Below the pieces are notes generated by a model. That model ran no database searches. It saw only the letters and a list, made by a program, of their open reading frames with translations, and was not told the DNA's origin. Below are positions 1 to 58,157 of a stretch of DNA of 64,000 nucleotides, piece by piece; the first letter of the stretch is position 1; each line of letters opens with the position of its first letter. Made by a program: the position numbers and the translations under genes. The DNA is from Bdellovibrionales bacterium (lineage in GTDB: Bacteria; Bdellovibrionota; Bdellovibrionia; Bdellovibrionales; UBA1609). Where the stretch lies: assembly GCA_015163875.1 (NCBI GenBank), contig JAAOIH010000001.1, positions 17,641-81,640 on the forward strand, read 5' to 3'.

Positions 1-2
1 TT

Positions 3-50
3 GGCAGGTCGGGTTACGACCCAGTACAGAAAGGATGTGATTGTGAATAA
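3..50 (+). CDS. yidD: yidD-like membrane protein insertion efficiency factor, 3' end only (gene runs off window start)
   Basis: Frame 3 reads GRSGYDPVQKGCDCE-stop (TAA 48-50). GYDPV matches the conserved C-terminal GGxDPVP motif of YidD. Position directly upstream of and overlapping yidC is the canonical rnpA-yidD-yidC layout. Confidence 0.5.
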   Translation, partial: GRSGYDPVQKGCDCE

Positions 51-1629: not shown

Positions 1630-1664
1630 AAATAAATAATAAATTATTATACAAAGGAGATAGC

Positions 1665-2327: not shown

Positions 2328-2347
2328 TTTTTTTTACATAAGCATTT

Positions 2348-3772: not shown

Positions 3773-3855
3773 AACTTTTGTCAGCCTAAAGTTTGTGGAA
3801 AATTAATATATTCAAAAGTGACAATCACAGCCTAATAGTATAAATAAATAAAAAT

Positions 3856-5745: not shown

Positions 5746-5787
5746 ACCAAAACTACACCCGCGCCACAAAAAAACCAAAACCAAAAC
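5725..5787. repeat. tandem duplication (period 33 nt) of the last six codons plus stop of mnmG
   Basis: CCCGCGCCACAAAAAAAC at 5725-5742 and again at 5758-5775. Flanks CTAAACCAAAAC versus CCAAAACCAAAAC. Followed by an A/C-rich tract to about 5805. Confidence 0.8.
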
Positions 5788-5809
5788 AAAAACCAAAACT
5801 AAACCAACA

Positions 5810-6991
5810 TCACAAGCTTAATTTTAAATGCACAAATTTTAAATACCTAGACTCTGGCATAGATTGCAAATACGGATGATCTGACCCCTGACTTGAAAGG
5901 CGAAAAACCTGCGCTTTTTTTCGATTAACAGAAACTGCCTGATTTATAATTTCTTGAAAATCAGAAAAGTTAATATGGCTAGAGCAAGAACTTAAAATTA
6001 AATCCCCGCCTGGTTTTAAAAATTTTATGGCAGCAGAAAATAAATTAATATATTTTTTTGTAGCTATTTGTTTTTGATCTTTTGATTTAGCCATAGATGG
6101 AGGGTCTACAATAACAATATCCCAAAGATTATCTGGTTTTTTTTCTAACCATTTTAAAATATCTTCTGACAAGGTGTTGTGAACATTATTTGGCAAATTA
6201 TTTAATTCCCAATTTTTTTGTGCATAGTTAATAGCAGGACTTGATAAATCTACACTACAAACTTTTTTAGAACCTCCCCTGCCCGCGTAAACAGAAAACC
6301 CACCAGTGTAACTAAATAAATTAAGAACAGATTTACCACTGCTAAGACCCTCAACATAATTACGATTGTCTCTTTGGTCTAAAAAAAATCCAGTTTTTTG
6401 TCCGTCTAAAACATTTACTAAAAAATTTAAATTGTTTTCTTTAATTATAATTTTTGTAAAATCTTTTTTTTCGTCTCCTAAAAAAAACATACCAGTGTTA
6501 TTTTTTATGTGACGGGATTTTATTACAATGCTTTCAGCAGAAGTAAAATCAAAAATCCAATTAAAATTAAATCGCCTTTCTTTTTTCCAAAATAATTCAG
6601 GGCCACTTCCGTCAAATTGTATTATTGCGGTGTGATTATAAATATCACAAACTAATCCCGGAAAGTAATCCCCCTCCCCGTTAATTAATCTAAATGCATT
6701 TGTAAAATTTGTATTAATATTTTTTCTAGAGGCTAGACTTTTTAAAAATTGGTTTTTAAAAAAAGCTTCGTCTGGAATATTTTTTTCTGTACTAAGTATT
6801 CTTAAAGCAAGTGGAGAATCTTTGTCATAAAACGCCCAAGCAATAAATCCTTTTTTATCATGCACTTGGCATAAACCTGCAAGATTTTTTTTTGGCAAAA
6901 CAATTGCGTCTTTGTAAACCCACGGCTGACCTTGCAAAATATATTTTCGCAAATTTCTACTAAGTGTAATTTTAAAAAATAAAGGGCTCAT
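5810..6991 (-). CDS. class I SAM-dependent rRNA methyltransferase, RlmI/PUA-domain type
   Basis: N-terminal PUA-like region (LRKYILQGQPWVYKDAI). C-terminal Rossmann methyltransferase (VLNLFSYTGGFSVYA, IVIVDPPSMAKS). Confidence 0.75.
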   Translation of the reverse strand: MSPLFFKITLSRNLRKYILQGQPWVYKDAIVLPKKNLAGLCQVHDKKGFIAWAFYDKDSPLALRILSTEKNIPDEAFFKNQFLKSLASRKNINTNFTNAFRLINGEGDYFPGLVCDIYNHTAIIQFDGSGPELFWKKERRFNFNWIFDFTSAESIVIKSRHIKNNTGMFFLGDEKKDFTKIIIKENNLNFLVNVLDGQKTGFFLDQRDNRNYVEGLSSGKSVLNLFSYTGGFSVYAGRGGSKKVCSVDLSSPAINYAQKNWELNNLPNNVHNTLSEDILKWLEKKPDNLWDIVIVDPPSMAKSKDQKQIATKKYINLFSAAIKFLKPGGDLILSSCSSHINFSDFQEIINQAVSVNRKKAQVFRLSSQGSDHPYLQSMPESRYLKFVHLKLSL

Positions 6992-7125
6992 AAAAATTTA
7001 ATATGATGTTGAAACTATGTCAGAGCAACTAGTTTGACTATTATATTTTATTTAGTTACTCAGAAGTAAGTATCAAACTAGACTTAGGCCAAGGCAGAAA
7101 AAAATTTATTTTCACCAACTATTGT

Positions 7126-7797
7126 ATGCAAAGTTTTAATTTACAATTTCCATTGTTATATCAAGTGCTTAAAGATTTGCCAGAATTCACTCGCATAATC
7201 ATAATGAATGAAGAAATTATTAAATTTAACAAAAAAATAAATCTGATTTCGCCAGCGACTGTTAAAATAATTGAAAGTGCTCATTTTTTAGATTCTATTT
7301 TGGGATCCAGATTAATTTTAAAAGACTCCCCCTCCCAAGAATTTTATGATGTTGGATCTGGAAACGGATTTCCTGGACTAATATTAGCCAGCTTAGATGA
7401 GCAAAGGTCGGTTAAGCTTGTAGAATCTGACAAGCGCAAGGCAGAATTTATAGAGCACTGCGCCTTTCAAATGAATTTAAATAATGTGGAGGTGGTTTGC
7501 TCTAGAGTAGAAAATCTGGCCTTAACAAAAAATACAGTATTTGTTTCAAGGGCATTTGCACCTATTTTAAAATCTTTAGATCTTTATAAAAAAGCATGCC
7601 CATCTGGATTTCAAGCCTATCATTTTAAATCTTTATATTGGCAAAATGAGGTTTCTTTGGGCTCTATATTGCCAGATAGCAAAAATGTTCCACATGGAAC
7701 AAAAAAAGCAAAAGATTTTTTTCACAGAGAGGTTGGCAAATACAAGCTCCCCCACAATAATCAAGATTTTTTTATCATAAATTCTTTTTTGGCCTAA
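7126..7797 (+). CDS. rsmG: 16S rRNA (guanine527-N7)-methyltransferase RsmG (GidB)
   Basis: SAM motif DVGSGNGFPGL. Conserved position before parAB. Internal ATG at 7204 is an alternative start. Confidence 0.85.
   Translation: MQSFNLQFPLLYQVLKDLPEFTRIIIMNEEIIKFNKKINLISPATVKIIESAHFLDSILGSRLILKDSPSQEFYDVGSGNGFPGLILASLDEQRSVKLVESDKRKAEFIEHCAFQMNLNNVEVVCSRVENLALTKNTVFVSRAFAPILKSLDLYKKACPSGFQAYHFKSLYWQNEVSLGSILPDSKNVPHGTKKAKDFFHREVGKYKLPHNNQDFFIINSFLA
7686..7701. promoter_or_regulatory. parS: parS-like centromere site TGTTCCACATGGAACA (copy 1, inside the 3' end of rsmG)
   Basis: 16-bp near-palindrome matching canonical parS TGTTTCACGTGAAACA at 13/16 positions. Identical 21-mer repeated at 7891. 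Confidence 0.65.
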
Positions 7798-7890
7798 GCT
7801 TTTAAAGCCCTAGACTTTAGTAGTAAATTTTTGTTTTATACAACACACAGACCTTGATTTTTTTCTTTTAGCAATTAAAGTATTGCTAAT

Positions 7891-7906
7891 TGTTCCACAT
7901 GGAACA
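7891..7906. promoter_or_regulatory. parS: parS-like centromere site TGTTCCACATGGAACA (copy 2, upstream of parA)
   Basis: Identical to copy 1. About 30 nt upstream of the parA start. Preceded by inverted repeat TAGCAAT-N6-ATTGCTA (7869-7888). Confidence 0.65.
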
Positions 7907-7935
7907 AAAAATCAAATATATTTTATGGAGGCATT

Positions 7936-8772
7936 TTGGCTCAAATTATTTGCATGTCTAATCAAAAAGGTGGTGTTGGAAAAACAACAACCACTGTAAA
8001 TTTAGGCGCTGCCCTATCTAGTTTTAATAAAAAAGTTTTAATTATTGATTTAGACCCTCAGGGAAACGCCTCTTCTGGGCTTGGAGTTAAAAATTACGAT
8101 AATGCAAATTTATATCACGCACTAATTGGCGAAAAAAGTATTTCATCGGTAACTAGGCAAACTAACCTGTCGCAACTCTTTATTGTTCCGTCTAATTCGG
8201 GACTTGTAGGTGTTGAGCCATTTTTATATCAGCAAAAAAACAAAGAATTATTTTTAAAAAAATCTCTGTCTAGTGTATCGGAAGAATATGATTATATCTT
8301 AATAGATTGCCCGCCATCTTTGGGTTTACTAACTTTAAACGCATTTACAGCCTCTAATTATTTTATGGTTCCATTACAATGTGAATATTATGCCTTGGAG
8401 GGGTTAAGCCAATTGCTAAATACTGCAGGAATTATTAAAAGTAATTTTAATCCAAACCTAGCTTTATTAGGAATTGTGTTAACAATGTTTGATACTAGAA
8501 ATAATTTAAGTCATCAGGTGGTTAGGGATGTAAAGCAGCATTTTTCTAACAAGGTTTTTAACTCAATTATCACAAGAAATGTACGACTTAGCGAGGCTCC
8601 CAGCTATGGAAAGTCTATTATTGAGTATGCACCACAGTCTATTGGTGCTGAGCGTTATATTTCTTTGGCAAAAGAGGTTGATAATAGATTTGTTCAGCTA
8701 AATACAGAAACAAATACACTGCCAAATGAATTTTCAGAACCAAGAATAGAAGAAATAACCAGTGCAAACTAG
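7936..8772 (+). CDS. parA: chromosome partitioning ATPase ParA/Soj
   Basis: Deviant Walker A NQKGGVGKTTTT and ParA-family body. TTG start with GGAGG RBS at 7925-7929. Confidence 0.95.
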   Translation: MAQIICMSNQKGGVGKTTTTVNLGAALSSFNKKVLIIDLDPQGNASSGLGVKNYDNANLYHALIGEKSISSVTRQTNLSQLFIVPSNSGLVGVEPFLYQQKNKELFLKKSLSSVSEEYDYILIDCPPSLGLLTLNAFTASNYFMVPLQCEYYALEGLSQLLNTAGIIKSNFNPNLALLGIVLTMFDTRNNLSHQVVRDVKQHFSNKVFNSIITRNVRLSEAPSYGKSIIEYAPQSIGAERYISLAKEVDNRFVQLNTETNTLPNEFSEPRIEEITSAN

Positions 8773-8880
8773 TTTGAGTATGCAAAAACAAAACAAAAGG
8801 CTGTAAAAGAATACTTTTTGAATAAGCTGATAAGGGATAAAAGTTTAGCTTTATAAAAAATAAAATAAAGAGGTTTAAAA

Positions 8881-9816
8881 ATGTCTAAAGATAATCAAAA
8901 AATAAAAAATAAAAAGGCACAAGGCTCTTTGGGAAGGGGGCTTGAATCTTTGTTGGGGGCTAGTGCATCTGGATTTAATTCTTTAGAAGGCGGGCCAGAC
9001 AAAGCAAATAACCCTGTAAATAATGGAGTTTTGTCTATTTCTGTAGAGTGGATTCGCCCAAATAAAAACCAACCTCGTGATATTTTTAATGACGAAGCTT
9101 TAGATGAGCTGTCTAAATCTATTAAGTCCCAAGGAATTTTACAACCAATAGTTGTAAGAACTTGCGGACAAAGATCTTTTGAAATTATAGCAGGAGAAAG
9201 GCGATGGAGAGCTGCCCAAAAAGCCGGCTTAAGTAAAGTTCCAGTTATAATTAAAGAGGCAAGCGATAATGTTTCTGCTGAATTAGCTTTAATAGAAAAT
9301 ATACAAAGAGAAGATTTAAATCCAATGGAAGAGGCAGAGGCATTACAAAATTTACTTAATTCCGGAAGCTTTACTCAACAAGTTTTAGCAGACAGACTTG
9401 GAAAAAACAGATCTTCTTTAGCAAACTTATTAAGACTATTAAACTTAGATACAGATGTTCGCAAACTTTTAAAAGCAAATAAATTATCTTTAGGCCAAGC
9501 TAAATTATTATTAAGTTTAGAAGATTTTAGTTTACAAAAAAGCTTTGCTAATATTGCTATTAAAAAAGATTTAAGCGTACAAGATTTATCAAAATTAATT
9601 AAAAAACAAAAATTAAAAAACAAGGCCAAAAGCTTTGCTCACACAGACAAAACAGAAAAACAAATACAGTTAAAAAAAGTTCAAGATCAAATTGAAAAAA
9701 AATTAGGAACAAAAGTTCAGCTAGATTATGCAAACGGTAAAGGCCATCTAAACATTCATTTTTCCACAGACAAACAGCTAAATCAGATTGTTCAATCTTT
9801 AGTGGGATTAAAGTAA
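8881..9816 (+). CDS. parB: chromosome partitioning protein ParB/Spo0J
   Basis: ParB box GERRWRAAQKAG (CTP-binding motif), HTH region, C-terminal dimerisation segment. Confidence 0.95.
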   Translation: MSKDNQKIKNKKAQGSLGRGLESLLGASASGFNSLEGGPDKANNPVNNGVLSISVEWIRPNKNQPRDIFNDEALDELSKSIKSQGILQPIVVRTCGQRSFEIIAGERRWRAAQKAGLSKVPVIIKEASDNVSAELALIENIQREDLNPMEEAEALQNLLNSGSFTQQVLADRLGKNRSSLANLLRLLNLDTDVRKLLKANKLSLGQAKLLLSLEDFSLQKSFANIAIKKDLSVQDLSKLIKKQKLKNKAKSFAHTDKTEKQIQLKKVQDQIEKKLGTKVQLDYANGKGHLNIHFSTDKQLNQIVQSLVGLK

Positions 9817-16050: not shown

Positions 16051-17034
16051 TTGAATTATAACATATATAAGACGAAAATATTAATTGTGAAAAGTTTTAA
16101 ATATTTTTTGTCTTTATTTTTTATTTTGTTTAGTCAAAATGTTCTTGCACAAGAAATAACTTTAGTTTGGGGAGACACTCTATCTAAATTAATTTTTCAA
16201 TATCATGATCGCGATATTAGTAATTGGAAAGAAGTTTTGCCTTTGTATTTATCTTTAAATCCACAAATTAAAAATGAAAATTTAATTTATGCAGGAAGTA
16301 AACTCAACATACCCTCCCAAGAAGATGTTGTAGATTATTTAAATTCTAAAAATACATTTGGCCTTGAAGATATTGGAGTTTTGTTTGCCGGAAAAAATAA
16401 AAAACAAAGAAGATCATTAATAGATCATGTTGCAAATCCATGGTCTTTAGAATTACAAGCAGGCCCTTATTTTAAATTAAATAAAAATAATTCTAGCTTA
16501 GAGTATTTTTCCAAGGGCGGCTTTGATATAAAAGCAAAAGGAGTTTATCATTTTAATGATAAATATTCCGTTGGGGTTATTTATAGATACTCCAAAAAAT
16601 CTTATGAACTATCATCCTCACTACCTTTGTCTGGCATTTATTTAGAAGCTTATATGAATTGGAATAAGTTTATTGTTTCTGCACTTTTTGGCTCCCAAGA
16701 AAGGTTAACTTATAATAAAGCAACTATAAAATTATTAACAGCAAGCCATTTTGATTATGGAATTGGACTTCACTATAGATTACTTCAAACAAAAAATTTT
16801 GAAGGATTAGTTGGGCTAAACTCTAAGCTGTTTACAAAATCTACTTCTTTTAAAAATGGAATGAATAAAAATGGATATGCAGTAATGGCAAGCACAATTT
16901 TTAATTATAATTTTTGGAAAAATCATTTAATTGGATTAGAGTCATCATACAGTCTATCTAAAGGAAAAAATAAAAAACACGAATCTGGCTTAGAAGATTT
17001 TGTAACAAGATTAAGCCTTCAGTTTAGTTTTTGA
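16051..17034 (+). CDS. LysM-domain protein with predicted C-terminal outer-membrane beta-barrel
   Basis: Signal peptide (KYFLSLFFILFSQNVLA-QE). LysM (ITLVWGDTLSKLI...NLIYAGSKLNIP). Alternating-hydrophobicity strands ending in LSLQFSF (C-terminal Phe OMP signature). GTG 16087 is an alternative start. Confidence 0.6.
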   Translation: MNYNIYKTKILIVKSFKYFLSLFFILFSQNVLAQEITLVWGDTLSKLIFQYHDRDISNWKEVLPLYLSLNPQIKNENLIYAGSKLNIPSQEDVVDYLNSKNTFGLEDIGVLFAGKNKKQRRSLIDHVANPWSLELQAGPYFKLNKNNSSLEYFSKGGFDIKAKGVYHFNDKYSVGVIYRYSKKSYELSSSLPLSGIYLEAYMNWNKFIVSALFGSQERLTYNKATIKLLTASHFDYGIGLHYRLLQTKNFEGLVGLNSKLFTKSTSFKNGMNKNGYAVMASTIFNYNFWKNHLIGLESSYSLSKGKNKKHESGLEDFVTRLSLQFSF

Positions 17035-29025: not shown

Positions 29026-29529
29026 ATGGAGGATCTTTTGGACACTTGGCTATCCTTAAATGAATACTCAAATAAGTATCGAGTTAGCTTATCTACTTTA
29101 CGCCGTCGGATTAAATCTGACAAAGTAGAATTTGCATTTCGATATGGTAAGTATTTTTTAAAAGATGTGTCTTTACAAGGAAGAGCTTCTATATCGTTCC
29201 CTCACACACCTAAACCTCCTGTTTTAAAGCCAAAAAACAGAGAGGCTTTAATAAAAAAAGCTTCTTCTTCTGATACAAAAAAAAATGTTTTTTCTAAAAC
29301 AGATTTGTCTGCCTATAGTTTTTTTAATATTGATAAAGACATAGCTTTAGAGACAGAAGACACAGATCAAGTTTTGACTAGTCACAATCAAGCAGAATCT
29401 GAAGAAGGCCTTCAGTTACCAACGGTTCAAAATGACTACAAAATGATTATTCAAAAACAAAAAGATCAGATCACAAAATTACATGGCGAAATAGACGATC
29501 TTAAAACTTTGATAATGGCCCTAGAATAA
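29026..29529 (+). CDS. hypothetical protein with N-terminal excisionase/MerR-like HTH and C-terminal coiled coil
   Basis: WLSLNEYSNKYRVSLSTLRRRIKSDKVEF resembles a winged-HTH DNA-binding segment; the rest is low complexity. Function not recognised. Confidence 0.4.
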   Translation: MEDLLDTWLSLNEYSNKYRVSLSTLRRRIKSDKVEFAFRYGKYFLKDVSLQGRASISFPHTPKPPVLKPKNREALIKKASSSDTKKNVFSKTDLSAYSFFNIDKDIALETEDTDQVLTSHNQAESEEGLQLPTVQNDYKMIIQKQKDQITKLHGEIDDLKTLIMALE

Positions 29530-32007: not shown

Positions 32008-33978
32008 TTATTTTGTTTCTTTTTTGTATATTTGTATTTTATTTTTTTTAATTTGATACAAGCTTAGAGGGCGAGTAAATTCTCTGTTTTCAGAAATATA
32101 CAAAGTTTCAAATGCACCTAAAAAATTTGCAGTTTTACTCATTGCTGTTTGTAGCTGTAATCTAGTGCTAATATTGTTTTTAGTTAGTGTCTCTTTTACT
32201 AAATGTGCCGCCTCGTAAGCGTAGCTAGCTAAAAGATGTGGCCTTTGATAAAATATTTTTTTAAATTCTTTATAAAAAAAAGAATTTTTTTTATCTTTGT
32301 AGGTTAAACTAGAATCTGCAAATAATATTGGTGCTGTATATTTTGGAAGAAATTTTATTAATTTAGGTTTGTTCCACAAATTTGTTCCAAGCAAAAGAAT
32401 GTCATCTATTTCGTGATAAATTAACATATTACTAATTTGAATTAAACTTCTAAAAGTATCTGGAATAAATAATGCCTGAAATTGCAACACTGGTTTTAAT
32501 AAATTATCCACAGAAACACTGTGGGCACGCCTTTTATTTTTATTTTTACTAAGCCATTGTTTTAAAGATTTTTTGTATTCTTCTTCTCTGTCTTTTAAAA
32601 AATATAAACCAGAAAGGCTTTTTACTTCTTTGTTAAAATCTTTTTCTTTGGAGGGGTAAGACTGAGCACCCACAATAGATTGTTTATTTTCTAAGACTAT
32701 ATCCCAAAATAAATTTGAATGTTTTGTTCCATAAGCGTCGTTTGGATATAAAGTAGCCCACTTGTTTGCACTAAAGTTTTCTTGTATTGCATTAAACAAA
32801 ATTTCTAACTGCATTTTACTTGTAATAGAATTTCTAAATACATACGGACGATTTATAGTAATGTCTGGACTTTGAGAAAGCGAAATATAAGGAACCTCAA
32901 ATTGAGAGGCGGCTTTTGCAACAATTTTAGATGTTTTACTTAGTGGATTTCCAATAATTGCAATAACCTGATCTTGTGTTAACAGCTTGTGCACGGCAAG
33001 TTCTGTATGCTGATTGCTGCCGTGACTGTCTACTATAATTAACTCTAGCCACGAGTTAGATTTTTTATCCCAAATACCTAGGCCAAGTGAAACCGCATTT
33101 ACAATAGCCCTTCCAATTTTTTTATACTTTCCAGTTAGAGGAACAATAAGTCCAATTTTATTTTTATTTACACTTTTATATTTTTTTATTTTTTGCAAAA
33201 AAGAAAGGGCCGATTGTTTTTCATTTTGATCTTGAGATGTTTTAAATAACTGTAAAAACGTTTTTTTTGCTTCAGAAAAATTTTTTTCTTTTAGCATTAG
33301 TTTTCCGTATCTCATAAGGGCAAATATTTGTAAATCTGGATATTTTTTCTCTCTAACAAGTGTTGCAATTTCTTTTTCGCTTAAAAGATTTTTGACAATC
33401 CAGCTAATTTGTTTTTTTATTGCAAATTGCAAAGACTTGTTATCTGCCAAACTTTGGCCTGCAGCAAGTGCATTAAAATATTGTTGCAATTGGTAATAGT
33501 ATTTAAATAATTTTGTATATAAATAATTTTGCAATGGAGCATCTAGCTGTTTTATTTTTAATTGTAAAATAAAAGAAACTGCAAATTGATACTGTCGCCG
33601 CTCTTCAGAAAATTTTATTAATCTTAAAATTGCCCTTTTTATAAGAGGGCTATTGTATTTAGAAAGCGCAATTTGTTCTAGTAGTTGAATTTGTAAACCA
33701 AGGTCTCCAGATTTAAGGGCCAGCTTGCTTCTTAAAAAAAGAGATTGAAAAAAGCTATGAGTATTTGGATAAGTTTGCTCTATTATTTTTAATTTTTTAA
33801 TTAATTTAAAATCATTAATTTGTTTTTTATTGTATTGATATAAAAGAGTTTTTAACTGAGCCTTGGCAGACGGGTGCAGCCGAGGCTTGGGCTTTGGAAC
33901 AGGCACATGCGCACACGAGCTAAGATATAAATATGTAAATAAACTAAAAAAAAAAATTAAATAATTATTTTTAATCAT
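32008..33978 (-). CDS. LpoA-like lipoprotein (helical TPR-like N-domain plus LivJ-type periplasmic-binding C-domain)
   Basis: Lipobox LYLSSC. Helical repeat N-half. C-half resembles type I periplasmic-binding fold (IGLIVPLTGKYKKIGRAIVNAVSLGL). Start ATG 33978 overlaps the grpE stop by 8 nt; ORF extends to 34014. Confidence 0.55.
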   Translation of the reverse strand: MIKNNYLIFFFSLFTYLYLSSCAHVPVPKPKPRLHPSAKAQLKTLLYQYNKKQINDFKLIKKLKIIEQTYPNTHSFFQSLFLRSKLALKSGDLGLQIQLLEQIALSKYNSPLIKRAILRLIKFSEERRQYQFAVSFILQLKIKQLDAPLQNYLYTKLFKYYYQLQQYFNALAAGQSLADNKSLQFAIKKQISWIVKNLLSEKEIATLVREKKYPDLQIFALMRYGKLMLKEKNFSEAKKTFLQLFKTSQDQNEKQSALSFLQKIKKYKSVNKNKIGLIVPLTGKYKKIGRAIVNAVSLGLGIWDKKSNSWLELIIVDSHGSNQHTELAVHKLLTQDQVIAIIGNPLSKTSKIVAKAASQFEVPYISLSQSPDITINRPYVFRNSITSKMQLEILFNAIQENFSANKWATLYPNDAYGTKHSNLFWDIVLENKQSIVGAQSYPSKEKDFNKEVKSLSGLYFLKDREEEYKKSLKQWLSKNKNKRRAHSVSVDNLLKPVLQFQALFIPDTFRSLIQISNMLIYHEIDDILLLGTNLWNKPKLIKFLPKYTAPILFADSSLTYKDKKNSFFYKEFKKIFYQRPHLLASYAYEAAHLVKETLTKNNISTRLQLQTAMSKTANFLGAFETLYISENREFTRPLSLYQIKKNKIQIYKKETK

Positions 33979-34690
33979 TTGCTGGTTTGTCGTTGTTTGT
34001 GCTTTTGTCATCATTTGTTAATTCTGTATCTTTTGATTTAGCCGCAGAAACAATAACCTGACTTGGGCGAATAACTTTATCATGCAATTTATATCCAACC
34101 TTGCACTCTTTTATAATATAGCCAACTTTAACAGTTTCGCTATTTTCTGAACTAATAGCTTCGTGCAAGTGGGGATCAAATACTTTTTTATTTGTTTCTA
34201 TTTTTTTTAATCCATGGCTCTCTAGGCTTTTTGATAATTCTTCAGAAGTCATTTTAAAGCCAGTGTAAATATTTTCGTAATTGTCTTTTGTTATTTTTGT
34301 TTGCAGTGCCATTTCAAAAAGATCAGAGATTTTTAAAATATCTAGCATTATATTTTCTGATCCAAAACTTATAAGTCGTAATTGTTCTTTTGCCATATTT
34401 TTTTTATAATTTTCAAACTCTGCTTTTAAATATGCATATTGAGTTTTAAATTCATCGGACTCTTTTTTTGCTAATTCTAATGGAGAAAGTTTTGGAGATG
34501 TGTCTGTTTTTTTGTCATCTTTTGTGTCGTCTTTTTTATTTTCTTCAGAAAAATCTAAAGTAAGACCTTCTTCGCCCTCTTCTTGACCAGTGACTGCATT
34601 TTCTTCAGCGCTGTTTTCAGAGCTTTCATCTTTGTTGTTTTCTGTGCTGCCTTCTGTATTATTTTCTGTATTTTTTATATACTCATTCAT
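33971..34690 (-). CDS. grpE: nucleotide exchange factor GrpE
   Basis: Long helix plus C-terminal beta domain (FDPHLHEAIS...GYKLHDKVIRPSQVIVS). About 70-aa acidic N-terminal extension. Confidence 0.9.
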   Translation of the reverse strand: MNEYIKNTENNTEGSTENNKDESSENSAEENAVTGQEEGEEGLTLDFSEENKKDDTKDDKKTDTSPKLSPLELAKKESDEFKTQYAYLKAEFENYKKNMAKEQLRLISFGSENIMLDILKISDLFEMALQTKITKDNYENIYTGFKMTSEELSKSLESHGLKKIETNKKVFDPHLHEAISSENSETVKVGYIIKECKVGYKLHDKVIRPSQVIVSAAKSKDTELTNDDKSTNNDKPAND

Positions 34691-35873: not shown

Positions 35874-36413
35874 TTGGCCTTTTTGTTTAAAATGCTAATA
35901 TTATATATGTCAACTCAAGAACTTTTGTCTATAACCAATGACACCCAATCTTTTTTTTATTCCACCTTAGAAGATGCTGTAAAAAATAAAAAATTATTTC
36001 TGTCTCAGCCGCTACTTAAGTATCTTAGCTCTATTTTAGCTCACTATAGCCTAAGTAAAAATCTTTGTCAGGAAGATAGTCTTCATAGCGCCCTAGCAAA
36101 AAAATATAAAAAAGCCCTGTCTTTTAAAGATTTACAGCAAAAAATACTATTAAAACAGGTGGCAGAAGAAATCCTGTACACACTTGGTTTTTTTACTCCA
36201 TTTTTAAAGAAAAAAATAATTGGAGTGGGCTTTTATGTAAATCTTGGAACTTATTCTTATAAGCGATTATCCTCTGTTGAAAAGTCTGAAGAAAAAAAAG
36301 ATATTTTTTTATACTGCAGTGAAAATTTTTTAGCATTTTTAGACTTATTTCATTATATATCTAAAAACTGTCTTCATATTTCGGCCCATGTAAATAATTC
36401 TAAATCTTTGTAG
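35874..36413 (+). CDS. hypothetical protein
   Basis: Intact ORF with no recognised motif. ATG 35907 is the more likely start. Confidence 0.3.
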   Translation: MAFLFKMLILYMSTQELLSITNDTQSFFYSTLEDAVKNKKLFLSQPLLKYLSSILAHYSLSKNLCQEDSLHSALAKKYKKALSFKDLQQKILLKQVAEEILYTLGFFTPFLKKKIIGVGFYVNLGTYSYKRLSSVEKSEEKKDIFLYCSENFLAFLDLFHYISKNCLHISAHVNNSKSL

Positions 36414-37523: not shown

Positions 37524-37967
37524 TTATTTTTGTAATTTTTTACAAATTAAATAATCTGTAGATATTTTTCCAGGGCCCCAAAGTATTATAATAAATAATG
37601 CCAATCCCCAAAGCTTGTGATCGTAAAAACCACCACTCCACAAGGCGGGATAAGAAATTACCGCAACAGCATTTAAAATAAATAATTTTAAAGCAGAAAG
37701 TCTGGATAATATTCCTAAAACCAAAACAACTGGTAAAACTATTTCGCCAGCAGTTGCAAGATAAGCTGCAATATGAGGGCTGATTAGCGGGACTTTGTAT
37801 TCTTCTTCAAATAAATACAAAGTAGCGTCCCAACCAGATATTTTATTTAAGCCTGCTTTAAAAAAAATCCAACCAACATAAATCCTAATTGATAATAAAA
37901 AAATTGGCTGCAGATAATCAGATATTTTATTAAAAATGTTATTGTAATAAATTAAAAACTTTTTCAT
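37524..37967 (-). CDS. DoxX-family membrane protein (fourth gene of the RiPP operon)
   Basis: DoxX pattern (LLSIRIYVGWIFFKAGLNKI...GEIVLPVVLVLGILSRLSAL), 4 TMs. 19-nt gap after the DUF2063 gene. Confidence 0.8.
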   Translation of the reverse strand: MKKFLIYYNNIFNKISDYLQPIFLLSIRIYVGWIFFKAGLNKISGWDATLYLFEEEYKVPLISPHIAAYLATAGEIVLPVVLVLGILSRLSALKLFILNAVAVISYPALWSGGFYDHKLWGLALFIIILWGPGKISTDYLICKKLQK

Positions 37968-37986
37968 TTTGTTATCCTTTGTAAAA

Positions 37987-38757
37987 TTATTTTTTTAACA
38001 TAAAACTTTTTTGTTCTAAAAAAAATAACAACTCATTTTGTAAATTAAAACTGTCGTTTATCCTTATTGCTTTTTTTGTAGAGTAAACTATGCCCTTATT
38101 ATTGTTGATTTCTGTTAAAAAAGCAAAACTTTCTTTTTTAATGGCTAGTATTTGTGGAGTAAAATTATTACGAACAATTAAAAAATAAAATTTTTTGTTT
38201 TCTTGTATTTTTAATGTGTCAATTTTTGTTAATTTAATTATTTTATCTAATGGGTATGAAGATAAAATTAAATGACAAGACACATGAAGTCCAAGCCTTG
38301 TTAAAAGCGAATCTTTTTTCTGCTCTTTTGCAAATTCAACAATATTAAGACATTCTGTGTTTTTTGAATAGTAAGATAGTGATAATAAAAATTCTAATTT
38401 AGCCAAATCTGGCAAATAAAGAAGGTTTTTTGTATGTTTATAATGTTTTAAAAAATTACTAAACTCATGCCCATAATTTTGTATGCTTTCTTTTTTGGGA
38501 GGGTAAGCTTTAATGTAATCACGGGCGGTTTGCTCAAAGGTCTTTTTTCCAATAATTTCAAAAGTTTTAGAATAAGAAGTTTTTAAACTATCTATATGAG
38601 TAGAAAAAAAATTATTTTGATAAATTTGAATAAGTTGCAAGCTAGATAAATTATGATGGCTTGTGTATTTACCAAGTAGATTTGTATTTTTGCAAACCTC
38701 GCCAGTATTAAATAAATCTTTAATAAAATATTTTTGTATAGTTTTTATAGTTTTCAT
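37987..38757 (-). CDS. DUF2063-family protein (MbnC/BufC-like partner of the MNIO enzyme)
   Basis: IQIYQNNFFSTHIDSLKTSYSKTFEIIGKKTFEQTARDYIKAYPP...YLPDLAKLEFLLS matches the DUF2063 N-terminal pattern (vYrNn...L...fP...lG...F...yl...P...dlArlE). Confidence 0.8.
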   Translation of the reverse strand: MKTIKTIQKYFIKDLFNTGEVCKNTNLLGKYTSHHNLSSLQLIQIYQNNFFSTHIDSLKTSYSKTFEIIGKKTFEQTARDYIKAYPPKKESIQNYGHEFSNFLKHYKHTKNLLYLPDLAKLEFLLSLSYYSKNTECLNIVEFAKEQKKDSLLTRLGLHVSCHLILSSYPLDKIIKLTKIDTLKIQENKKFYFLIVRNNFTPQILAIKKESFAFLTEINNNKGIVYSTKKAIRINDSFNLQNELLFFLEQKSFMLKK

Positions 38758-38778
38758 TTTTAATAAATATTTTTGTAA

Positions 38779-39528
38779 TCAACAGATACTATTTATAATA
38801 TCTTGGGCTTTGTTTTTTTCATTTAATAATATTTGTATGTCTGGAATATTAGTGTCCCACTCTATTAGTGTATGCGCTTTTTTAAATATTTTAATGCTTT
38901 TAGAAAAAAGATCCCAAACCTCTTTTGATACAGAAGATCCATGATCGTCTATATAAATATTTATATTATTTTCTAAATTAATTTGGTGACCAGCTAAATG
39001 AATTTCTTGAACATCTAGATCTTTAATTTTATTTAAATATTCTAATGGATCAAAATTGTGATTTTTAGAGTTAACAAAAATATTATTTATATCTAACAAA
39101 ACTCCACAACCACTTTGACTACTGGCGCTTGATAAAAACTGCCACTCTGACATATCAGATTCAGAAAAACTTAAATAACTAGACGGGTTTTCTATTAAAA
39201 TTTTTTTATTAAGTAAGCTTTGTGCTTGGTCAATATTGTTAACAAAATTTTTTAAACTAAGCTTTGTGTATGGTATTGGCAAAAGATCATGTGTAAATAT
39301 ATTATCTAACCCGCTCCAGCTCATATGATCAGATATTAAAAAAGGCTGAAGTTTATCAGAAAGTTTTTTTATTTTTTTTGCGTAATCTAAATTAATAGAC
39401 TGACAAGACCCAAGCGAAAAACCAAGGCAGTGAAAGCTAATAGGGTAGTGTTTTCTTAATTTGTAAAGACAATCTATATGTTTTCCACCATCAGAAAAAT
39501 AATTTTCTGGATGAATTTCTAACCACAT
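38779..39528 (-). CDS. DUF692 / MNIO (MbnB-family multinuclear non-heme iron oxidase), main ORF lacking the conserved N-terminus
   Basis: WLEIHPENYF, ISFHCLGFSLGS, ISDHMSWSG, HDLLPIPYT, ILIENPSSYLSF, SEWQFL, GCGVLLDINNIFVNSKNHNFDP, EIHLAGH, IDDHGSSVSKEVW, TLIEWD are the DUF692 TIM-barrel signatures. No SD precedes ATG 39528. Confidence 0.85.
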   Translation of the reverse strand: MWLEIHPENYFSDGGKHIDCLYKLRKHYPISFHCLGFSLGSCQSINLDYAKKIKKLSDKLQPFLISDHMSWSGLDNIFTHDLLPIPYTKLSLKNFVNNIDQAQSLLNKKILIENPSSYLSFSESDMSEWQFLSSASSQSGCGVLLDINNIFVNSKNHNFDPLEYLNKIKDLDVQEIHLAGHQINLENNINIYIDDHGSSVSKEVWDLFSKSIKIFKKAHTLIEWDTNIPDIQILLNEKNKAQDIINSIC

Positions 39529-39549
39529 ATTTTTATATTTTTTTTTTTA

Positions 39550-39600
39550 AAAAATTTCTAAATGTGGAGACCGCAACCCAATGCCACATTCTTGCGGCAT
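39550..39600 (-). pseudogene. 17-codon N-terminal segment of the DUF692/MNIO gene, in frame with the main ORF but cut off by one TAA (39547-39549)
   Basis: Minus strand reads ATG CCG CAA GAA TGT GGC ATT GGG TTG CGG TCT CCA CAT TTA GAA ATT TTT TAA = MPQECGIGLRSPHLEIF-stop, then KKKYKN-MWLEIHPENYF in the same frame. GIGLR is the conserved first strand of DUF692 enzymes. Confidence 0.65.
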
Positions 39601-39644
39601 TGGTTTTTTTATAGAATTTTGCATTCTATTGTTAACAATTATAT

Positions 39645-39908
39645 TTATTTTTTCTTAATAGTGTTAACTAAGCTTCCGCCAACTATTTTTTTGCACAAAC
39701 CTTTTGGAACTACTATAAACGCATCTTTTTGTGCATTTTTTTTAGCACTACCAGCGCAAGAAGTGGTATTAGTTGAGCAATCGTTTTGGCCAGCTTTTAC
39801 TATTCCGTAGCATTTTTCTTTTTTTGCAGCACTTGCATCTTTGGCCTGTGTAGTGATAGCCAAAAGAGCAATTGCGGATATGCTTGCAGCAATTTGTTTT
39901 TTAGTCAT
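39645..39908 (-). CDS. DUF2282-family secreted Cys-containing precursor peptide (bufferin BufA1-like)
   Basis: Sec signal [27 protein letters not shown], then [24 protein letters not shown]...[13 protein letters not shown] with four Cys in DUF2282 spacing. GGAG RBS. Confidence 0.85.
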
Positions 39909-39935
39909 AGTTTTCTCCGTGTTTTAATTACACAT

Positions 39936-39963
39936 AATTTAAAAGTTTAAAAAAATAAGTCAA
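39936..39963 (-). promoter_or_regulatory. possible sigma70-type promoter of the RiPP operon
   Basis: Minus strand TTGACT-N16-TAAATT about 30 nt upstream of the GGAG RBS of the precursor gene. Pattern match only. Confidence 0.3.
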
Positions 39964-53555: not shown

Positions 53556-54716
53556 ATGGTAAAAATTTTAGTGGTAGATGACGAAGTAGACATGGAGTCA
53601 TTGATTACACAAAAGTTTAGAAAAAAACTTCACAGTAAAGAGTGGGAAATGATATTCCGCCACAACGGAGAGCAGGCCCTAGATGTTTTACAAAAAGATC
53701 CAACAATTGATATTGTTTTGTCTGATATAAATATGCCACAAATGAACGGACTAACTCTTACTCAAAAAATTCAAGAAGCTGGATTTGATATACGAACAGT
53801 AATTGTTTCAGCTTATGGAGATATTGAAAATATAAGAACGGCAATGAATAACGGAGCATTTGATTTTATTACTAAGCCAATTAATTTTAAAGACATGGAG
53901 CACACAATAACAAGAGGCTTTGATAATCTTTCTAAAATGAAAGATGCAATGCAATCTAAAAATGATTTGATTCATTTAAAAAAAGAATTAAATCTAGCTC
54001 ATAAAATTCAACAGTCTATACTTCCAAATGATTTTAATTTAGATAAAAATTGTGAAATACATGCAGTTATGACTCCCGCAAAAGAAATTGGTGGTGATTT
54101 TTATGATTTTTTTAAAATAGATAACGATCACATTGCACTTGTAGTTGCAGATGTTTCTGGCAAAGGCGTCGCAGCAGCTTTATTTGCTCTGATTACACAA
54201 ACAGTATTAAATGGATTAAGTATGTCTAATAATCCAAGCGAAGTGTGTAAAGTTATTAAAGAGGTTAATAAAAAAAGTTGTATAAATAATGAAAGCTTAA
54301 TGTTTGTTACACTTTTTTACGGAGTGCTTAACACAAAAACAGGCAAATTTACTTACACTAATGCAGGACACAACCCACCCTTTATAATTAAAAATGATTT
54401 TAAAGTTGAAGAGCTTGAGCTAACTGACGGAATTCCATTGGGGATATCTATAGATAAAGATTTTTTAGAAAAAACAATAGAATTAAAACCAGAAGAAACA
54501 TTATTTATTTATACAGACGGAGTAACAGAGTCTATGAATTCTGATAACCAAGAGTTTGGAGAATCTAGATTAATAAAAATTTTATCAGAGCCGTGCAAAA
54601 AAGATATTAAATCTCTTAATACAAAAGTACACCAAAGTGTTAAAGATTTTGCAGGCGACACTCCACAGTCTGATGATTTAACTTATCTTGCTATTAAATA
54701 TTTGCCAAAACAATAA
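53556..54716 (+). CDS. response-regulator receiver fused to PP2C/SpoIIE phosphatase (RsbU-like)
   Basis: Receiver (ILVVDDE...LSDINMPQMNG...ITKP) plus PP2C (GGDFYDFF, VADVSGKGVAAAL, YTDGVTE, DDLTYLA). Confidence 0.9.
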   Translation: MVKILVVDDEVDMESLITQKFRKKLHSKEWEMIFRHNGEQALDVLQKDPTIDIVLSDINMPQMNGLTLTQKIQEAGFDIRTVIVSAYGDIENIRTAMNNGAFDFITKPINFKDMEHTITRGFDNLSKMKDAMQSKNDLIHLKKELNLAHKIQQSILPNDFNLDKNCEIHAVMTPAKEIGGDFYDFFKIDNDHIALVVADVSGKGVAAALFALITQTVLNGLSMSNNPSEVCKVIKEVNKKSCINNESLMFVTLFYGVLNTKTGKFTYTNAGHNPPFIIKNDFKVEELELTDGIPLGISIDKDFLEKTIELKPEETLFIYTDGVTESMNSDNQEFGESRLIKILSEPCKKDIKSLNTKVHQSVKDFAGDTPQSDDLTYLAIKYLPKQ

Positions 54717-54727
54717 AGGAATATATT

Positions 54728-55915
54728 TTGATTTTTCGTTTTTTATTTTTTATTAACTTTTTTTTTTCAAATTTTGCAATTGCAAATTCTGATTTTGTAG
54801 AAGGAGTAACTAAGACAGAAATATTTTTTGGACAATCTGCCGCATTAACGGGCCCTGCAAAAAGCTTAGGATTAAATATGCAAAAAGGCATTTTATCAGC
54901 ATTTGTAGAAGTAAATAATAATGGCGGGGTTAATGGCAGAAAACTTAGACTTAAAAGTTTAGACGATCACTACGAACCAGAAACGGCCATTAAAAATATT
55001 TACCACCTAATAGATAAAGAAAAAGTTTTTTCTTTAATTGGGGGAGTTGGTACGCCAACTTCAAAAGCAATCGTCCCCATTATTAAAAAATCAAAAAAAC
55101 TTTATATTGGCCCCCTTACAGGAGCCTCTTTTTTAAGATCATCCCATGTTAACACAGTTGTTAATATAAGAAGCTCTTACTTTCAAGAAATTAAAGAAAT
55201 GGTTTTAAGGTTAAAAAATGATTTAAAAATTAAACGAATTGCAATCTTTTATCAAAACGACTCTTATGGGATTGACGGCTTAAATGCTTTAGAAAAATCT
55301 GTAAAAGAGATTAATAAAGGATTAAAAATTGTTTCTAGAGGGTCTTATCTCAGAAACACAATGGCTATTAAAACCGCACTTTTAAATATTAAAAAAGCTA
55401 AGCCAGATGCTATTATTATTATTGGAACTTATTCACCTGCAGCACATTTTATAAAATGGTCAGAAAAGTTAAAAATTAAATCAAAACTTTTTTTATCTGT
55501 TTCTTTTGTTGGAGTTTCTGAATTGGCAAAAAAACTTAAAAATAGCAAAAGTCTTGTTTTTGTAACTCAGGTAGTTCCGTTTCCCTACAATAAAAAGGGG
55601 CGTCTTTTAAAAAATTATCACAGGGCAATGAAAAAAATTAAAAGCTCTAATAAAATAGGATTTGTTAGTTTAGAGGGCTACATTGTTGGAAGAATTGTAA
55701 TTGAAGCCCTTAAAAGAGCCGGAAAAAAATTAACAAACAAAAGTTTTAAAAAAGTTTTTAAATCAAAAAAAAGTAATTTTAATATCGATGGATTAAGGTT
55801 GTCTTATACTAAAAAAAATAATCAAGGATCTAATAAAGTGTTTCTTACAAGAATTTTTAAAGGAAGGGTTTTGCCTTTAAAAAATTTAAAAGCATTTTAT
55901 AAAAAAATAAAATAA
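54728..55915 (+). CDS. periplasmic substrate-binding protein, LivJ/branched-chain amino acid-binding type
   Basis: Signal peptide. FGQSAALTGPAKSLGLNMQKGILSAFVEVNNNGGVNGRKLRL is the type I periplasmic-binding signature. TTG start. Confidence 0.8.
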   Translation: MIFRFLFFINFFFSNFAIANSDFVEGVTKTEIFFGQSAALTGPAKSLGLNMQKGILSAFVEVNNNGGVNGRKLRLKSLDDHYEPETAIKNIYHLIDKEKVFSLIGGVGTPTSKAIVPIIKKSKKLYIGPLTGASFLRSSHVNTVVNIRSSYFQEIKEMVLRLKNDLKIKRIAIFYQNDSYGIDGLNALEKSVKEINKGLKIVSRGSYLRNTMAIKTALLNIKKAKPDAIIIIGTYSPAAHFIKWSEKLKIKSKLFLSVSFVGVSELAKKLKNSKSLVFVTQVVPFPYNKKGRLLKNYHRAMKKIKSSNKIGFVSLEGYIVGRIVIEALKRAGKKLTNKSFKKVFKSKKSNFNIDGLRLSYTKKNNQGSNKVFLTRIFKGRVLPLKNLKAFYKKIK

Positions 55916-55961: not shown

Positions 55962-58157
55962 TTATTTAGGCAATTTTAAAATAAATTTAGTAAATTCACC
56001 AAGCTTGCTTTCAAGCGTCATTGTGCCAGAGTGTTTTTGCATAATATCATTAGACAAAGAAAGCCCAAGGCCAGTGCCTTTGTCGGTTGGTTTTGTTGTA
56101 AAAAATGGATCAAAAACTTTTTGCTGAATTTCTTTAGAAATTCCAGGGCCGTTGTCTTTAATAGAAATTTCTATAAAATTTTTGTCGCCTTTATTTATTA
56201 ATCTAGTTTTAATTTCAATGATGGGCTTGTAATTATTTTTTTCTTCTTCTGTTGAAAATTTTTGTATTTTATCTTCTATTGCATCGCAGGAGTTGCCTAC
56301 TAAATTTAAAATAACTCTTGATATATCTTGAGGGTATATTTTTATTTTACCTAAGTTATCTTCATAATCTTTTTTAAATTCAACATCAAATCCAGAATTT
56401 ACAACAACTTTTCCTTTATAGGCCAGATTTATTGATCTATCTAAAAATGGATGTAGATCAATGTCTTCTTTTTTGTCATTTGCTGATTGCCCGCTGGAAT
56501 GCTGCAACATTCCAGTTACAATTTTATCAGTTCTTTGTCCGTGAGAATAAATTTTTTCTAAATTTTCGCCCAAGTCTTTCATTAATAAATTAATAAAGCT
56601 AATTTTTTCTTTTTCTAAAGTAGACTCTATTGATTTTAATTCCTCGACAAGTTCTTTTATAATATCTTTAGAAAGTAAAGAAAAATTATTAATAAAATTT
56701 AACGGATTTTTAATTTCATGTGCAACACCAGCTACTAGCCCACCTAAAGAAGCCAGTTTTTCTTGCATGACCATTTGTTTTTGAGCATTTTTTAATTTTT
56801 TAATAATGTCTTCTAGCTGATCATTTTTTTCTTGAATTTCTTTTGCTAATTTTTCTACTAAATTTATTCTTTGTGCCTCTATTGCATATTTACGAAACAC
56901 CTCTAATGATTTTGCCATATCTGCAATTTCGTCACTTCCACTAACAACTAATGGAATTTTTAAATCGCCATTAGACATTGTCAGCATTGTTTTAGATAAA
57001 GTTTTAATTCTTCCAATTAAGTATTTTTTTACAAATAAAATTCCTATCAATAAAGCTAAAAAAATAGTTATAATATTTAAAATTAAAAGTTGATTTTGAT
57101 TATTATAAATAGTTTTTTCAAAAACTTTAGATATATTATGACCATCAAGCTCTATACTTGTAATTAATATACCAGTTTGCTTAGATAGCAAAGTTACAAA
57201 ATGCCTATTTTTTTCTAAGTATTTTTTTTGTTGCTTTTGTTCTTGAAAAATTTTGCTTAATAATTTAAAAACCCCCTGATCTTTTATGTCAAAAGATTTG
57301 CTATTTTTTTTTCCAAAACCGCTTTGATCTAAAAAATAAATTTTTTCAGATATTTTTTTATATAAATTATGATTAGATAAAAACTTTAATGCATGCTGAG
57401 AATTTCTTAAAGCCGCACGAAACCTTTCTTTAATTGGTTGAATTAAATCAGCCTTTGATAGTTGAGAAACCTGAAGTAGCAAATTGGACAAAATATTACT
57501 TTGTGTATCTAAAGAAAGCAGCCCTCTATAGTAAGAAATAGATTCTGGGTTAGATCTAATATTAACTGGCACAGCTTTTTTTTGTTTTAAAGTTTTAAAT
57601 CCAGTGTGTAAAAAAAAAGTTTGGTTATCTATTGCAGATATTAATATTCTCCCAACTTCTCTGGATTCTTTAGTTACCTTAGATAAAAGAATGTTTAGAT
57701 CTTTTTTCCAGATTAAGGTGTTGCTAACTGACCTTTCTAAATTTTTTAAGTTTTCTAATAAAGATTGTGATAAAATTTGAATGTTGCCGACAGTGCCTTT
57801 TTTAGAATTATGTGTAGTTTGTTTTAGTTTATTTAATATATCAGACAACCCGTTGCTACTTTTGTTTATAATAATTTTTGTTTTATTTATTTCTTTTTCT
57901 GTTTGTGAAGAAAAAAGTCTTGGGGCAACCTCTGTTAAAGCGGCGCTTTCTTGGCCAATTTTTATGGCTAGCGAAAGTTCAGGAATTCTTTCTTCTGTAA
58001 TAGCCCTCTGAATTCCGTTCATTTCTATTAAAGATTTCCATCCCAAAAAACTGGCTATAAATATCAAGCCAACAAATATAAATAAACCAAAATACATTTG
58101 AACTCCAATAGTCCATTTAATTGGCAAATTTAAAAATAAATGTTTAAGAGATCTCAT
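55962..58157 (-). CDS. sensor histidine kinase with large periplasmic domain and HAMP
   Basis: Two TMs flanking about 330 aa, HAMP, H-box AHEIKNPLNF, HATPase (DNGPGI, GTGLGLS). Confidence 0.9.
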   Translation of the reverse strand: MRSLKHLFLNLPIKWTIGVQMYFGLFIFVGLIFIASFLGWKSLIEMNGIQRAITEERIPELSLAIKIGQESAALTEVAPRLFSSQTEKEINKTKIIINKSSNGLSDILNKLKQTTHNSKKGTVGNIQILSQSLLENLKNLERSVSNTLIWKKDLNILLSKVTKESREVGRILISAIDNQTFFLHTGFKTLKQKKAVPVNIRSNPESISYYRGLLSLDTQSNILSNLLLQVSQLSKADLIQPIKERFRAALRNSQHALKFLSNHNLYKKISEKIYFLDQSGFGKKNSKSFDIKDQGVFKLLSKIFQEQKQQKKYLEKNRHFVTLLSKQTGILITSIELDGHNISKVFEKTIYNNQNQLLILNIITIFLALLIGILFVKKYLIGRIKTLSKTMLTMSNGDLKIPLVVSGSDEIADMAKSLEVFRKYAIEAQRINLVEKLAKEIQEKNDQLEDIIKKLKNAQKQMVMQEKLASLGGLVAGVAHEIKNPLNFINNFSLLSKDIIKELVEELKSIESTLEKEKISFINLLMKDLGENLEKIYSHGQRTDKIVTGMLQHSSGQSANDKKEDIDLHPFLDRSINLAYKGKVVVNSGFDVEFKKDYEDNLGKIKIYPQDISRVILNLVGNSCDAIEDKIQKFSTEEEKNNYKPIIEIKTRLINKGDKNFIEISIKDNGPGISKEIQQKVFDPFFTTKPTDKGTGLGLSLSNDIMQKHSGTMTLESKLGEFTKFILKLPK

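Follow-up and report, generated by a model that had tools for sequence, protein, structure and literature searches.

The stretch of DNA analysed here, referred to as the window, comprises 64,000 nucleotides (nt) of contig JAAOIH010000001.1 (assembly GCA_015163875.1) from a Bdellovibrionales bacterium, and carries a putative operon, bufABCD, for a peptide of the copper-buffering family known as bufferins, with a point lesion in its second gene. The operon is composed of bufA (39908..39645, 87 amino acids (aa)), the main open reading frame (ORF) of bufB (39528..38779, 249 aa), bufC (38757..37987, 256 aa) and bufD (37967..37524, 147 aa), all on the minus strand. A first-pass annotation had described four co-directional minus-strand genes running from 39908 to 37524, and the ORF list gives exactly those ends. 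The gaps between the genes are 19-21 nt if the bufB start is taken as the ancestral ATG at 39624, bufD starting 19 nt past the end of bufC. Genes for a biotin carboxyl carrier, a biotin carboxylase and a carboxyltransferase lie upstream, and tatC and tatA, convergent on the operon, lie downstream, which agrees with the earlier placement between tatAC and an acyl-CoA carboxylase. NCBI entries MBE8221144-47, from a metagenome-assembled genome (MAG) labelled "Bdellovibrionales bacterium", have exactly the sequences of these four proteins.

Pfam matches were judged by the curated gathering scores and NCBIfam equivalog models by their own cut-offs. All four proteins score above the Pfam thresholds, in the families that had been proposed for them (DUF2282, DUF692, DUF2063 and DoxX). 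The 87-aa protein, a Buf1/DUF2282 precursor, matches PF10048 DUF2282/BufA1 over the entire profile (1-53 of 53; E=8e-24, 83.8 bits against 22.4), and the 249-aa protein matches PF05114 MbnB_TglH_ChrH (E=1e-87, 293.8 bits against 25), the family of multinuclear non-heme iron oxidases (MNIO) formerly called DUF692. The 256-aa protein matches PF09836 DUF2063 (E=6e-15, 55.7 bits against 27.2) and the 147-aa protein PF07681 DoxX (E=7e-18, 65.5 bits against 23.6). The 249-aa protein also passes the equivalog NF050167 MNIO_BufB, "MNIO family bufferin maturase" (315.3 bits against 310).

As read from the sequence, every feature that marks a Buf1 bufferin cluster is present, according to the definition of the class in 2024 (Leprevost et al., PMC11626156) and its survey in 2025 (PMC12452194). 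The bufB gene does not run intact from beta1 to the C-terminal helix, which concerns function in this strain and not homology. We consider it very likely that the locus is a Buf1-type (DUF2282) bufferin (captophorin) biosynthetic operon, inherited vertically in an AT-rich clade of small-genome Bdellovibrionales. The curated profiles and an architecture matching the 2024 definition bear out the first-pass proposal of a bufferin-type cluster for a ribosomally synthesised and modified peptide, and the date and the thiooxazole and copper chemistry that it gave agree with the published work. Some observations count against the assignment. BufC reaches 26.1 bits with NCBIfam HvfC, whose cut-off is 142, and BufD 62.7 bits with HvfX, whose cut-off is 80; both models describe a sister subfamily. 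In addition, no sigma/anti-sigma regulator was found among the neighbouring genes, unlike in Caulobacter, and no copper-responsive regulator lies nearby.

Two other subtypes were considered and rejected because the proteins score below the equivalog cut-offs. Assignment to HvfABCX, the oxazolin subtype, fails on the HvfC and HvfX scores just given, on HvfB (207.8 bits against 360) and on the lack of an EGKCG repeat. The methanobactin type fails on TIGR04159 (58 bits against 325), on the partner, which is DUF2063 and not MbnC, and on the precursor, which is DUF2282.

BufA begins with a predicted Sec-type signal peptide (residues 1-27, 39908-39828, minus strand), recognised by inspection and hydropathy: K3 and K4 are followed by a hydrophobic stretch at 6-18, and A-S-A occupies positions -3 to -1 of a predicted cut at 27/28; by inspection it has no lipobox Cys. 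The core (residues 28-87) has 60 aa, 13 of them Lys and none His; its calculated pI is 9.8 and its average mass 6272 Da. Its four Cys (C33, C44, C51 and C72) are separated by gaps of 10/6/20, the family mode, found in 120 of 147 DUF2282 representatives. The signal peptide and core had been quoted letter for letter in the first-pass annotation, and its four Cys in DUF2282 spacing prove to follow the modal pattern. The context of Cys III is Ser-Cys-Ala, identical to that in Caulobacter Buf1; the His that precedes Cys III in 67 of the 147 representatives is missing. Regarding composition, Lys makes up 17% of the BufA domain (family mean 10.6%, standard deviation 3.4; rank 7 of 147) and 9.9% of the window proteins overall. 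Basic C-terminal tails also occur in other members of the family, and the core is nearly the same in the five closest relatives, including a KKK-type tail. On this rank, the tails elsewhere and the sharing across the clade, the Lys-richness is, as far as the sequences tell, a clade trait at the upper end of the family range and no outlier. The description of the core as unusually Lys-rich and ending in KKK therefore holds in that the content is high for the family, and not in that it lies within the family range and is clade-wide. In three MAGs of intracellular-type Rickettsiales, Candidatus Midichloriaceae (L002-L004, about 5450-5990), an MNIO gene is likewise preceded directly by a DUF2282 precursor; these precursors have a long Ala/Pro/Thr-rich spacer between signal peptide and domain, and a His before Cys III.

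BufC, the DUF2063 partner with a helical N-domain and an alpha/beta C-terminal domain, is divergent, with only 11 relatives even by profile search. A sequence search found no solved structure for BufA or BufC. The AlphaFold2 model of BufC has a predicted local distance difference test score (pLDDT) of 86.8 and, compared by Foldseek, matches TglI (8hi7_A, E=1e-4, TM score 0.61), the partner of the MNIO TglH, as well as the DUF2063 protein NGO1945 (3dee, E=3e-4), both over about 225-230 columns; comparison of the model with isolated RRE domains gave no significant match. BufD is small, with the hydrophobic segments of a DoxX-family membrane protein; a DoxX gene is frequent in such clusters but not obligatory.

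The closest characterised system is buf1ABCD of Caulobacter vibrioides (CCNA_03363-03366; PMC11626156), in which the same four families follow one another in the same order; this architecture is also that of the "gig" operons of Cupriavidus metallidurans, Legionella pneumophila and Bordetella pertussis. In Caulobacter, Cys II and Cys III become 5-thiooxazoles, with a loss of 4 Da each, for which BufB and BufC are necessary and sufficient, and a disulfide links Cys I to Cys IV. The bufferin binds copper 1:1 through two nitrogen and two sulfur ligands, with dissociation constants of ~6e-15 M for Cu(II) and ~7e-20 M for Cu(I), and neither modification nor copper protection depends on the DoxX protein. 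The locus described here has in common with Buf1 a DUF2282 precursor with Sec signal, four Cys and Ser-Cys-Ala at Cys III, an MNIO of the BufB equivalog, and a partner of DUF2063 plus a C-terminal domain. It differs in a core of 60 instead of 68 residues, in a Cys II-III gap of 6, the family norm, where Caulobacter has 7 (10/7/20), in the very basic core (13 Lys, no His, pI ~9.8), in having no adjacent sigF/nrsF-type regulator genes, and in the host, a Bdellovibrionales symbiont with a genome of ~1.2 Mb and 29% GC, in which bufB is interrupted by a nonsense codon.

Carried over from Caulobacter, the mechanism would be as follows. BufA would be made with its Sec signal peptide, and before export the iron-dependent oxidase BufB together with BufC would convert Cys44 and Cys51 to 5-thiooxazoles, while Cys33 and Cys72 would form a disulfide. 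Sec export would remove the signal peptide and leave a basic peptide of ~6.3 kDa in the periplasm, the predicted product being the 60-residue core of about 6262 Da. There the peptide may bind copper through two nitrogens and two sulfurs and buffer copper stress, with BufD (DoxX) as an accessory membrane protein dispensable for modification. We give hardly any credence to a different reading, in which DUF2282 would be an unrelated membrane or secreted protein, the DUF692, DUF2063 and DoxX proteins would act on a non-peptide substrate and no metallophore would be made. Pfam did once describe DUF2282 as a "predicted integral membrane protein", and the missing His before Cys III and the missing copper-responsive regulator would fit such a reading. 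It is contradicted by genetics, in vitro reconstitution, nuclear magnetic resonance and metal-binding data on the homologous operon of Caulobacter, and all characterised MNIOs with a DUF2063-type partner install 5-thiooxazoles on peptides (PMC13097082). Moreover, the hydrophobic stretch of BufA has, on inspection, the appearance of a cleavable signal peptide and not of a membrane anchor.

More distant systems share parts of this architecture. The wider class, now also called captophorins, counts >20,000 clusters in RefSeq (PMC13097082). Its EGKCG-type members, oxazolin (hvfABCX of Haemophilus influenzae), fontiphorin and gonophorin (PMC13097082; bioRxiv 10.64898/2026.07.17.739211), likewise combine an MNIO, a DUF2063-type partner, DoxX and a precursor with Sec signal, and their 5-thiooxazole chemistry and copper binding are the same as predicted here. 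Their precursors consist of EGKCG repeats, in contrast to the folded DUF2282 domain of BufA. Among solved structures, BufB is matched best by PDB 3BWW, a close relative of HvfB. The MbnABC and TglHI systems have in common with the locus the MNIO TIM-barrel fold and metal-ligand pattern, a dedicated partner and a cysteine target, and the model of BufC suggests a fold like that of TglI. However, their products are oxazolone/thioamide pairs or arise by beta-carbon excision and are not thiooxazoles, their precursors have a leader peptide but no Sec signal, and methanobactin is secreted for copper uptake as opposed to buffering in the periplasm.

Five relatives (L012, L013, L014/L015, L016 and L017), from other samples, have bufABCD at exactly this position, flanked by the carrier protein gene and tatC. 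Across the six sequences BufB identity is 69-85%, and the BufB proteins of the relatives are intact, with 274-280 aa. Upstream of bufA, a consensus scan found a promoter-like element (TTGACT, 16 nt, TAAATT; 39936..39963, minus strand) of putative function, and TTGACT, 16 nt and TAnnCT occur at the same site in four of the five relatives (L012, L013, L014 and L017). In the region scanned, the number of promoter-like sites equals the chance expectation. A Shine-Dalgarno sequence GGAG, read from the sequence at 39915..39918 (minus strand), stands 6 nt (39914-39909) ahead of the bufA ATG and is also present before bufA in the same four relatives. In comparison with the closest relative, L012, the ratios of nonsynonymous to synonymous substitution rates (dN/dS) are 0.09, 0.11, 0.13 and 0.12 for bufA to bufD, with dS ~1, and resemble those of the neighbouring carboxylase genes. 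The shared slot, the purifying selection and the conserved upstream elements indicate, at the level of sequence, that the locus is a stable, selected part of the small chromosome of this clade and not a recent acquisition. The first-pass view of an accessory-looking locus is therefore misleading, since both synteny and purifying selection hold for the operon throughout the clade.

Regarding the host, over 11.2 kb the window shares 99.92% identity with the Logan assembly of sequencing run SRR11301536. The metagenome sequenced in this run is that of a tedaniid sponge collected at Crane, a hydrothermal vent site in the southern Okinawa Trough, and a Bdellovibrionales symbiont bin of ~1.2 Mb was reported from it (PMC8518922). 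Because of this near-identity and the NCBI label, the window very probably comes from a Bdellovibrionales symbiont of a deep-sea vent sponge with a genome of ~1.2 Mb. Bufferins are already known as a very large family of copper-buffering peptides and the identification itself adds little; the retention of the operon at a fixed site under purifying selection in so small a genome, that of a symbiont of sponges at metal-rich vents, argues that the pathway is useful there.

The bufB gene is interrupted near its 5' end. Upstream of the 249-aa ORF the frame reads MQNSIKKPMPQECGIGLRSPHLEIF, TAA, KKKYKN and then the ORF Met, where full-length BufB relatives read ...LEIFLKKKYKNLWLEIH... in the same region. 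The orphaned 5' part (39547..39624, minus strand) has 25 codons, MQNSIKKPMPQECGIGLRSPHLEIF, ending at the premature stop, and covers beta1 and the start of alpha1 with the GxGLRxxH motif; these codons align with the N-termini of 280-aa relatives and of PDB 3BWW. The stop, a Leu26 to TAA change at 39547..39549 (minus strand), corresponds to TTA in the closest relatives by codon alignment, in which the window reads TTT TAA AAA AAA AAA TAT AAA AAT ATG and L012 reads TTT TTA ... AAT CTG. A second substitution, CTG to ATG at 39528, seven codons after the stop, opens the 249-aa ORF. On sequence comparison, both point changes arose on the strain's own branch. In line with the lesion, the Pfam match of the 249-aa ORF covers positions 23-262 of the 263 in PF05114, with 1-22 (beta1 and alpha1) missing, and the NCBIfam match likewise starts at profile position 22-23. 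The first-pass annotation had hinted at an MNIO N-terminus in need of repair; that terminus is truly damaged, and the hint understated the lesion, which consists of a nonsense codon plus a new downstream start. Public annotation gives the 249-aa ORF as a normal protein, so that the lesion is hidden.

The stop lies at the junction of a T6 and an A11 run (39530-39556), where the relatives have T7A10; the window is rich in such runs (GC ~0.29). A sequencing or assembly error at this junction, with bufB in fact intact, could therefore be imagined, the change falling exactly on a homopolymer boundary and both stop-bearing assemblies probably deriving from the same sponge metagenome. We regard it as improbable: the change is a substitution and not a length difference, and the accompanying CTG to ATG change lies outside the homopolymer. 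Moreover, the independently made Logan assembly has the same stop and start bases while differing at nine other sites, and P0001, a third sequence with 2 aa differences, is also called as 249 aa from the same Met. Since the assemblies that show the stop probably represent one sponge sample, what is excluded is a slip of assembly and not a polymorphism among strains. A scan of metagenome contigs with a degenerate 50-mer for both bufB alleles gave no matches, and a scan of genome contigs for them gave only distant relatives, at <=44% identity.

Two ways of reading through the stop were rejected. Recoding of TAA as a sense codon is not credible because TAA is the stop codon used most in the window, ending 39 of the 55 long ORFs including bufA, and no tRNA genes were found in the window. 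As for rescue by frameshifting or polymerase slippage at T6A11, worked through by hand, a single shift meets a stop within ~5-10 codons and only a double event (+1 U, -1 A) would restore the ancestral bufB message, which was judged unlikely.

The structural consequence can be read from the AlphaFold2 model of a full-length relative, P0002 (pLDDT 93.7), which matches 3BWW, TglH and MbnB and places beta1 at 14-16, alpha1 at 19-28 and beta2 at 35-37. With the stop within alpha1 and the new Met just ahead of beta2, the main ORF would, by this model, lack one complete beta/alpha unit. Among 99 homologues, G14, G16, L17 and H21 of this region are each conserved in >=90%, and position 18, within the missing segment, is Arg or Lys in 98 of 98. 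In FonB the equivalent Arg15 lies at the modelled substrate site, and its change alters substrate tolerance (PMC13097082). The N-terminus is kept in 98 of the 99 homologues; the apparent exception, P0061, is no naturally short homologue, its start being mis-called with a GIGLR motif in frame upstream. The 249-aa ORF retains the family-invariant residues H65, H100, E145, D178, N181, H209, D226, H228 and E255, as well as D257, counted among them, and the Asp aligned with the proposed catalytic base. The site-3 residues of HvfB whose importance has been shown (Asn, Asp and His) correspond to the LDINN and IDDHG motifs. By comparison with MbnB structures, the retained invariant residues are probably the iron ligands.

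Ribosomes terminating at the TAA probably re-initiate at the new ATG 18 nt downstream, a distance that makes this plausible in bacterial translation. The gene could then yield no more than a 25-residue peptide, covering beta1 and the start of alpha1, and an enzyme of 249 residues without that unit. Consequently, with a nonsense codon and a new start in bufB, the production of modified peptide in this strain is uncertain, and sequence alone cannot tell whether BufB is dead, weakened or working in two pieces. Since the lesion takes away a conserved structural unit as well as a residue of the substrate site, we lean, with limited confidence, towards the view that maturation is lost or strongly weakened in the strain.

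Several observations pull the other way. The change from CTG to ATG falls exactly where re-initiation needs a start, and Met is found at that position in none of the 99 aligned homologues. The 249 codons contain no second lesion and keep all family-invariant His, Asp, Glu and Asn, the ORF still exceeds the BufB equivalog cut-off, and bufA, bufC and bufD are intact. Relative-rate counts for bufB are 19:11, 13:16 and 13:12 with three outgroups; the count of 28:10 with L013 is probably a tree effect. The dN/dS of bufB is 0.106, compared with 0.115 in a pair of intact relatives, and neither test shows decay of the gene. A second MNIO gene may also exist outside the window.

Most of these points, including a dN/dS of ~0.1 with no clear acceleration on the branch, speak for an interrupted bufB that still works: the re-initiated 249-aa protein would be active by itself, or would pair with the 25-residue beta1 peptide to form a split TIM barrel, and the strain would go on making the thiooxazole peptide. 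This is a serious possibility that we nevertheless place behind loss or weakening of maturation. A whole beta/alpha unit of the barrel is gone from the main chain, BufB residues 26-32 are in neither piece, and the lost GxGL(R/K)xxH motif is near-invariant, with an Arg that contacts the substrate in the FonB model. In addition, the N-terminus is kept throughout the homologues apart from the mis-called start, there is no Shine-Dalgarno sequence ahead of the new ATG, and the clean ORF may just reflect a recent stop. More speculative, and in our judgement rather doubtful, is the idea that bufB is a naturally split multinuclear iron oxidase whose two pieces, or the large one by itself, would go on installing thiooxazoles with BufC; selection would then have favoured the CTG to ATG change because it preserved the pathway while the symbiont genome shrank. 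The strain may serve as a natural test of whether an MNIO tolerates the loss or splitting of its first beta/alpha unit, and of whether unmodified BufA has a role.

Other candidate signals within the operon were discarded. A sigma-70-like match in 11 of 12 positions (TTAACA, 18 nt, TATAAT; 39638-39667, minus strand), at the end of bufA and in the bufA-bufB spacer, is not conserved in the relatives and is probably a chance occurrence in AT-rich DNA. An attenuating hairpin between bufA and bufB is inconsistent among the genomes, with -0.1 kcal/mol in the window (z=+0.99) and -1.3 to -5.7 kcal/mol in the five relatives (z=-0.2 to -2.1). The terminator scan of the region found none, and Rfam gave no matches in the window.

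The remainder of the window is composed of housekeeping genes, including mnmE, mnmG, parAB, ATP synthase, complex I, mfd, lon, grpE, glnA and amt. Beside tatA, a 179-aa ORF (35874-36413, plus strand) has no Pfam match, and a gene of 164-172 aa, also without Pfam match, occupies the equivalent position in all five relatives, which indicates a conserved gene of unknown function. Two further ORFs amid the housekeeping genes, of 327 aa (16051-17034, plus strand) and 167 aa (29026-29529, plus strand), have no Pfam match at E<=0.001. A 668-aa protein (32008-34014, minus strand) has a periplasmic binding protein domain only at ~286-467, preceded by a long unmatched N-terminal part; the start of its gene overlaps the end of grpE by 44 nt, and the arrangement is conserved in the relatives (654-656 aa). 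Beside glnA and amt, three neighbouring genes possibly form a signalling module. The first (53556-54716) encodes a response regulator fused to a SpoIIE-type phosphatase, the second (54728-55915) a periplasmic binding protein and the third (55962-58157, minus strand) a HAMP histidine kinase. Near the start of the window (1-9816), mnmE, mnmG, parA and parB are grouped together, the usual neighbourhood of a chromosomal replication origin.

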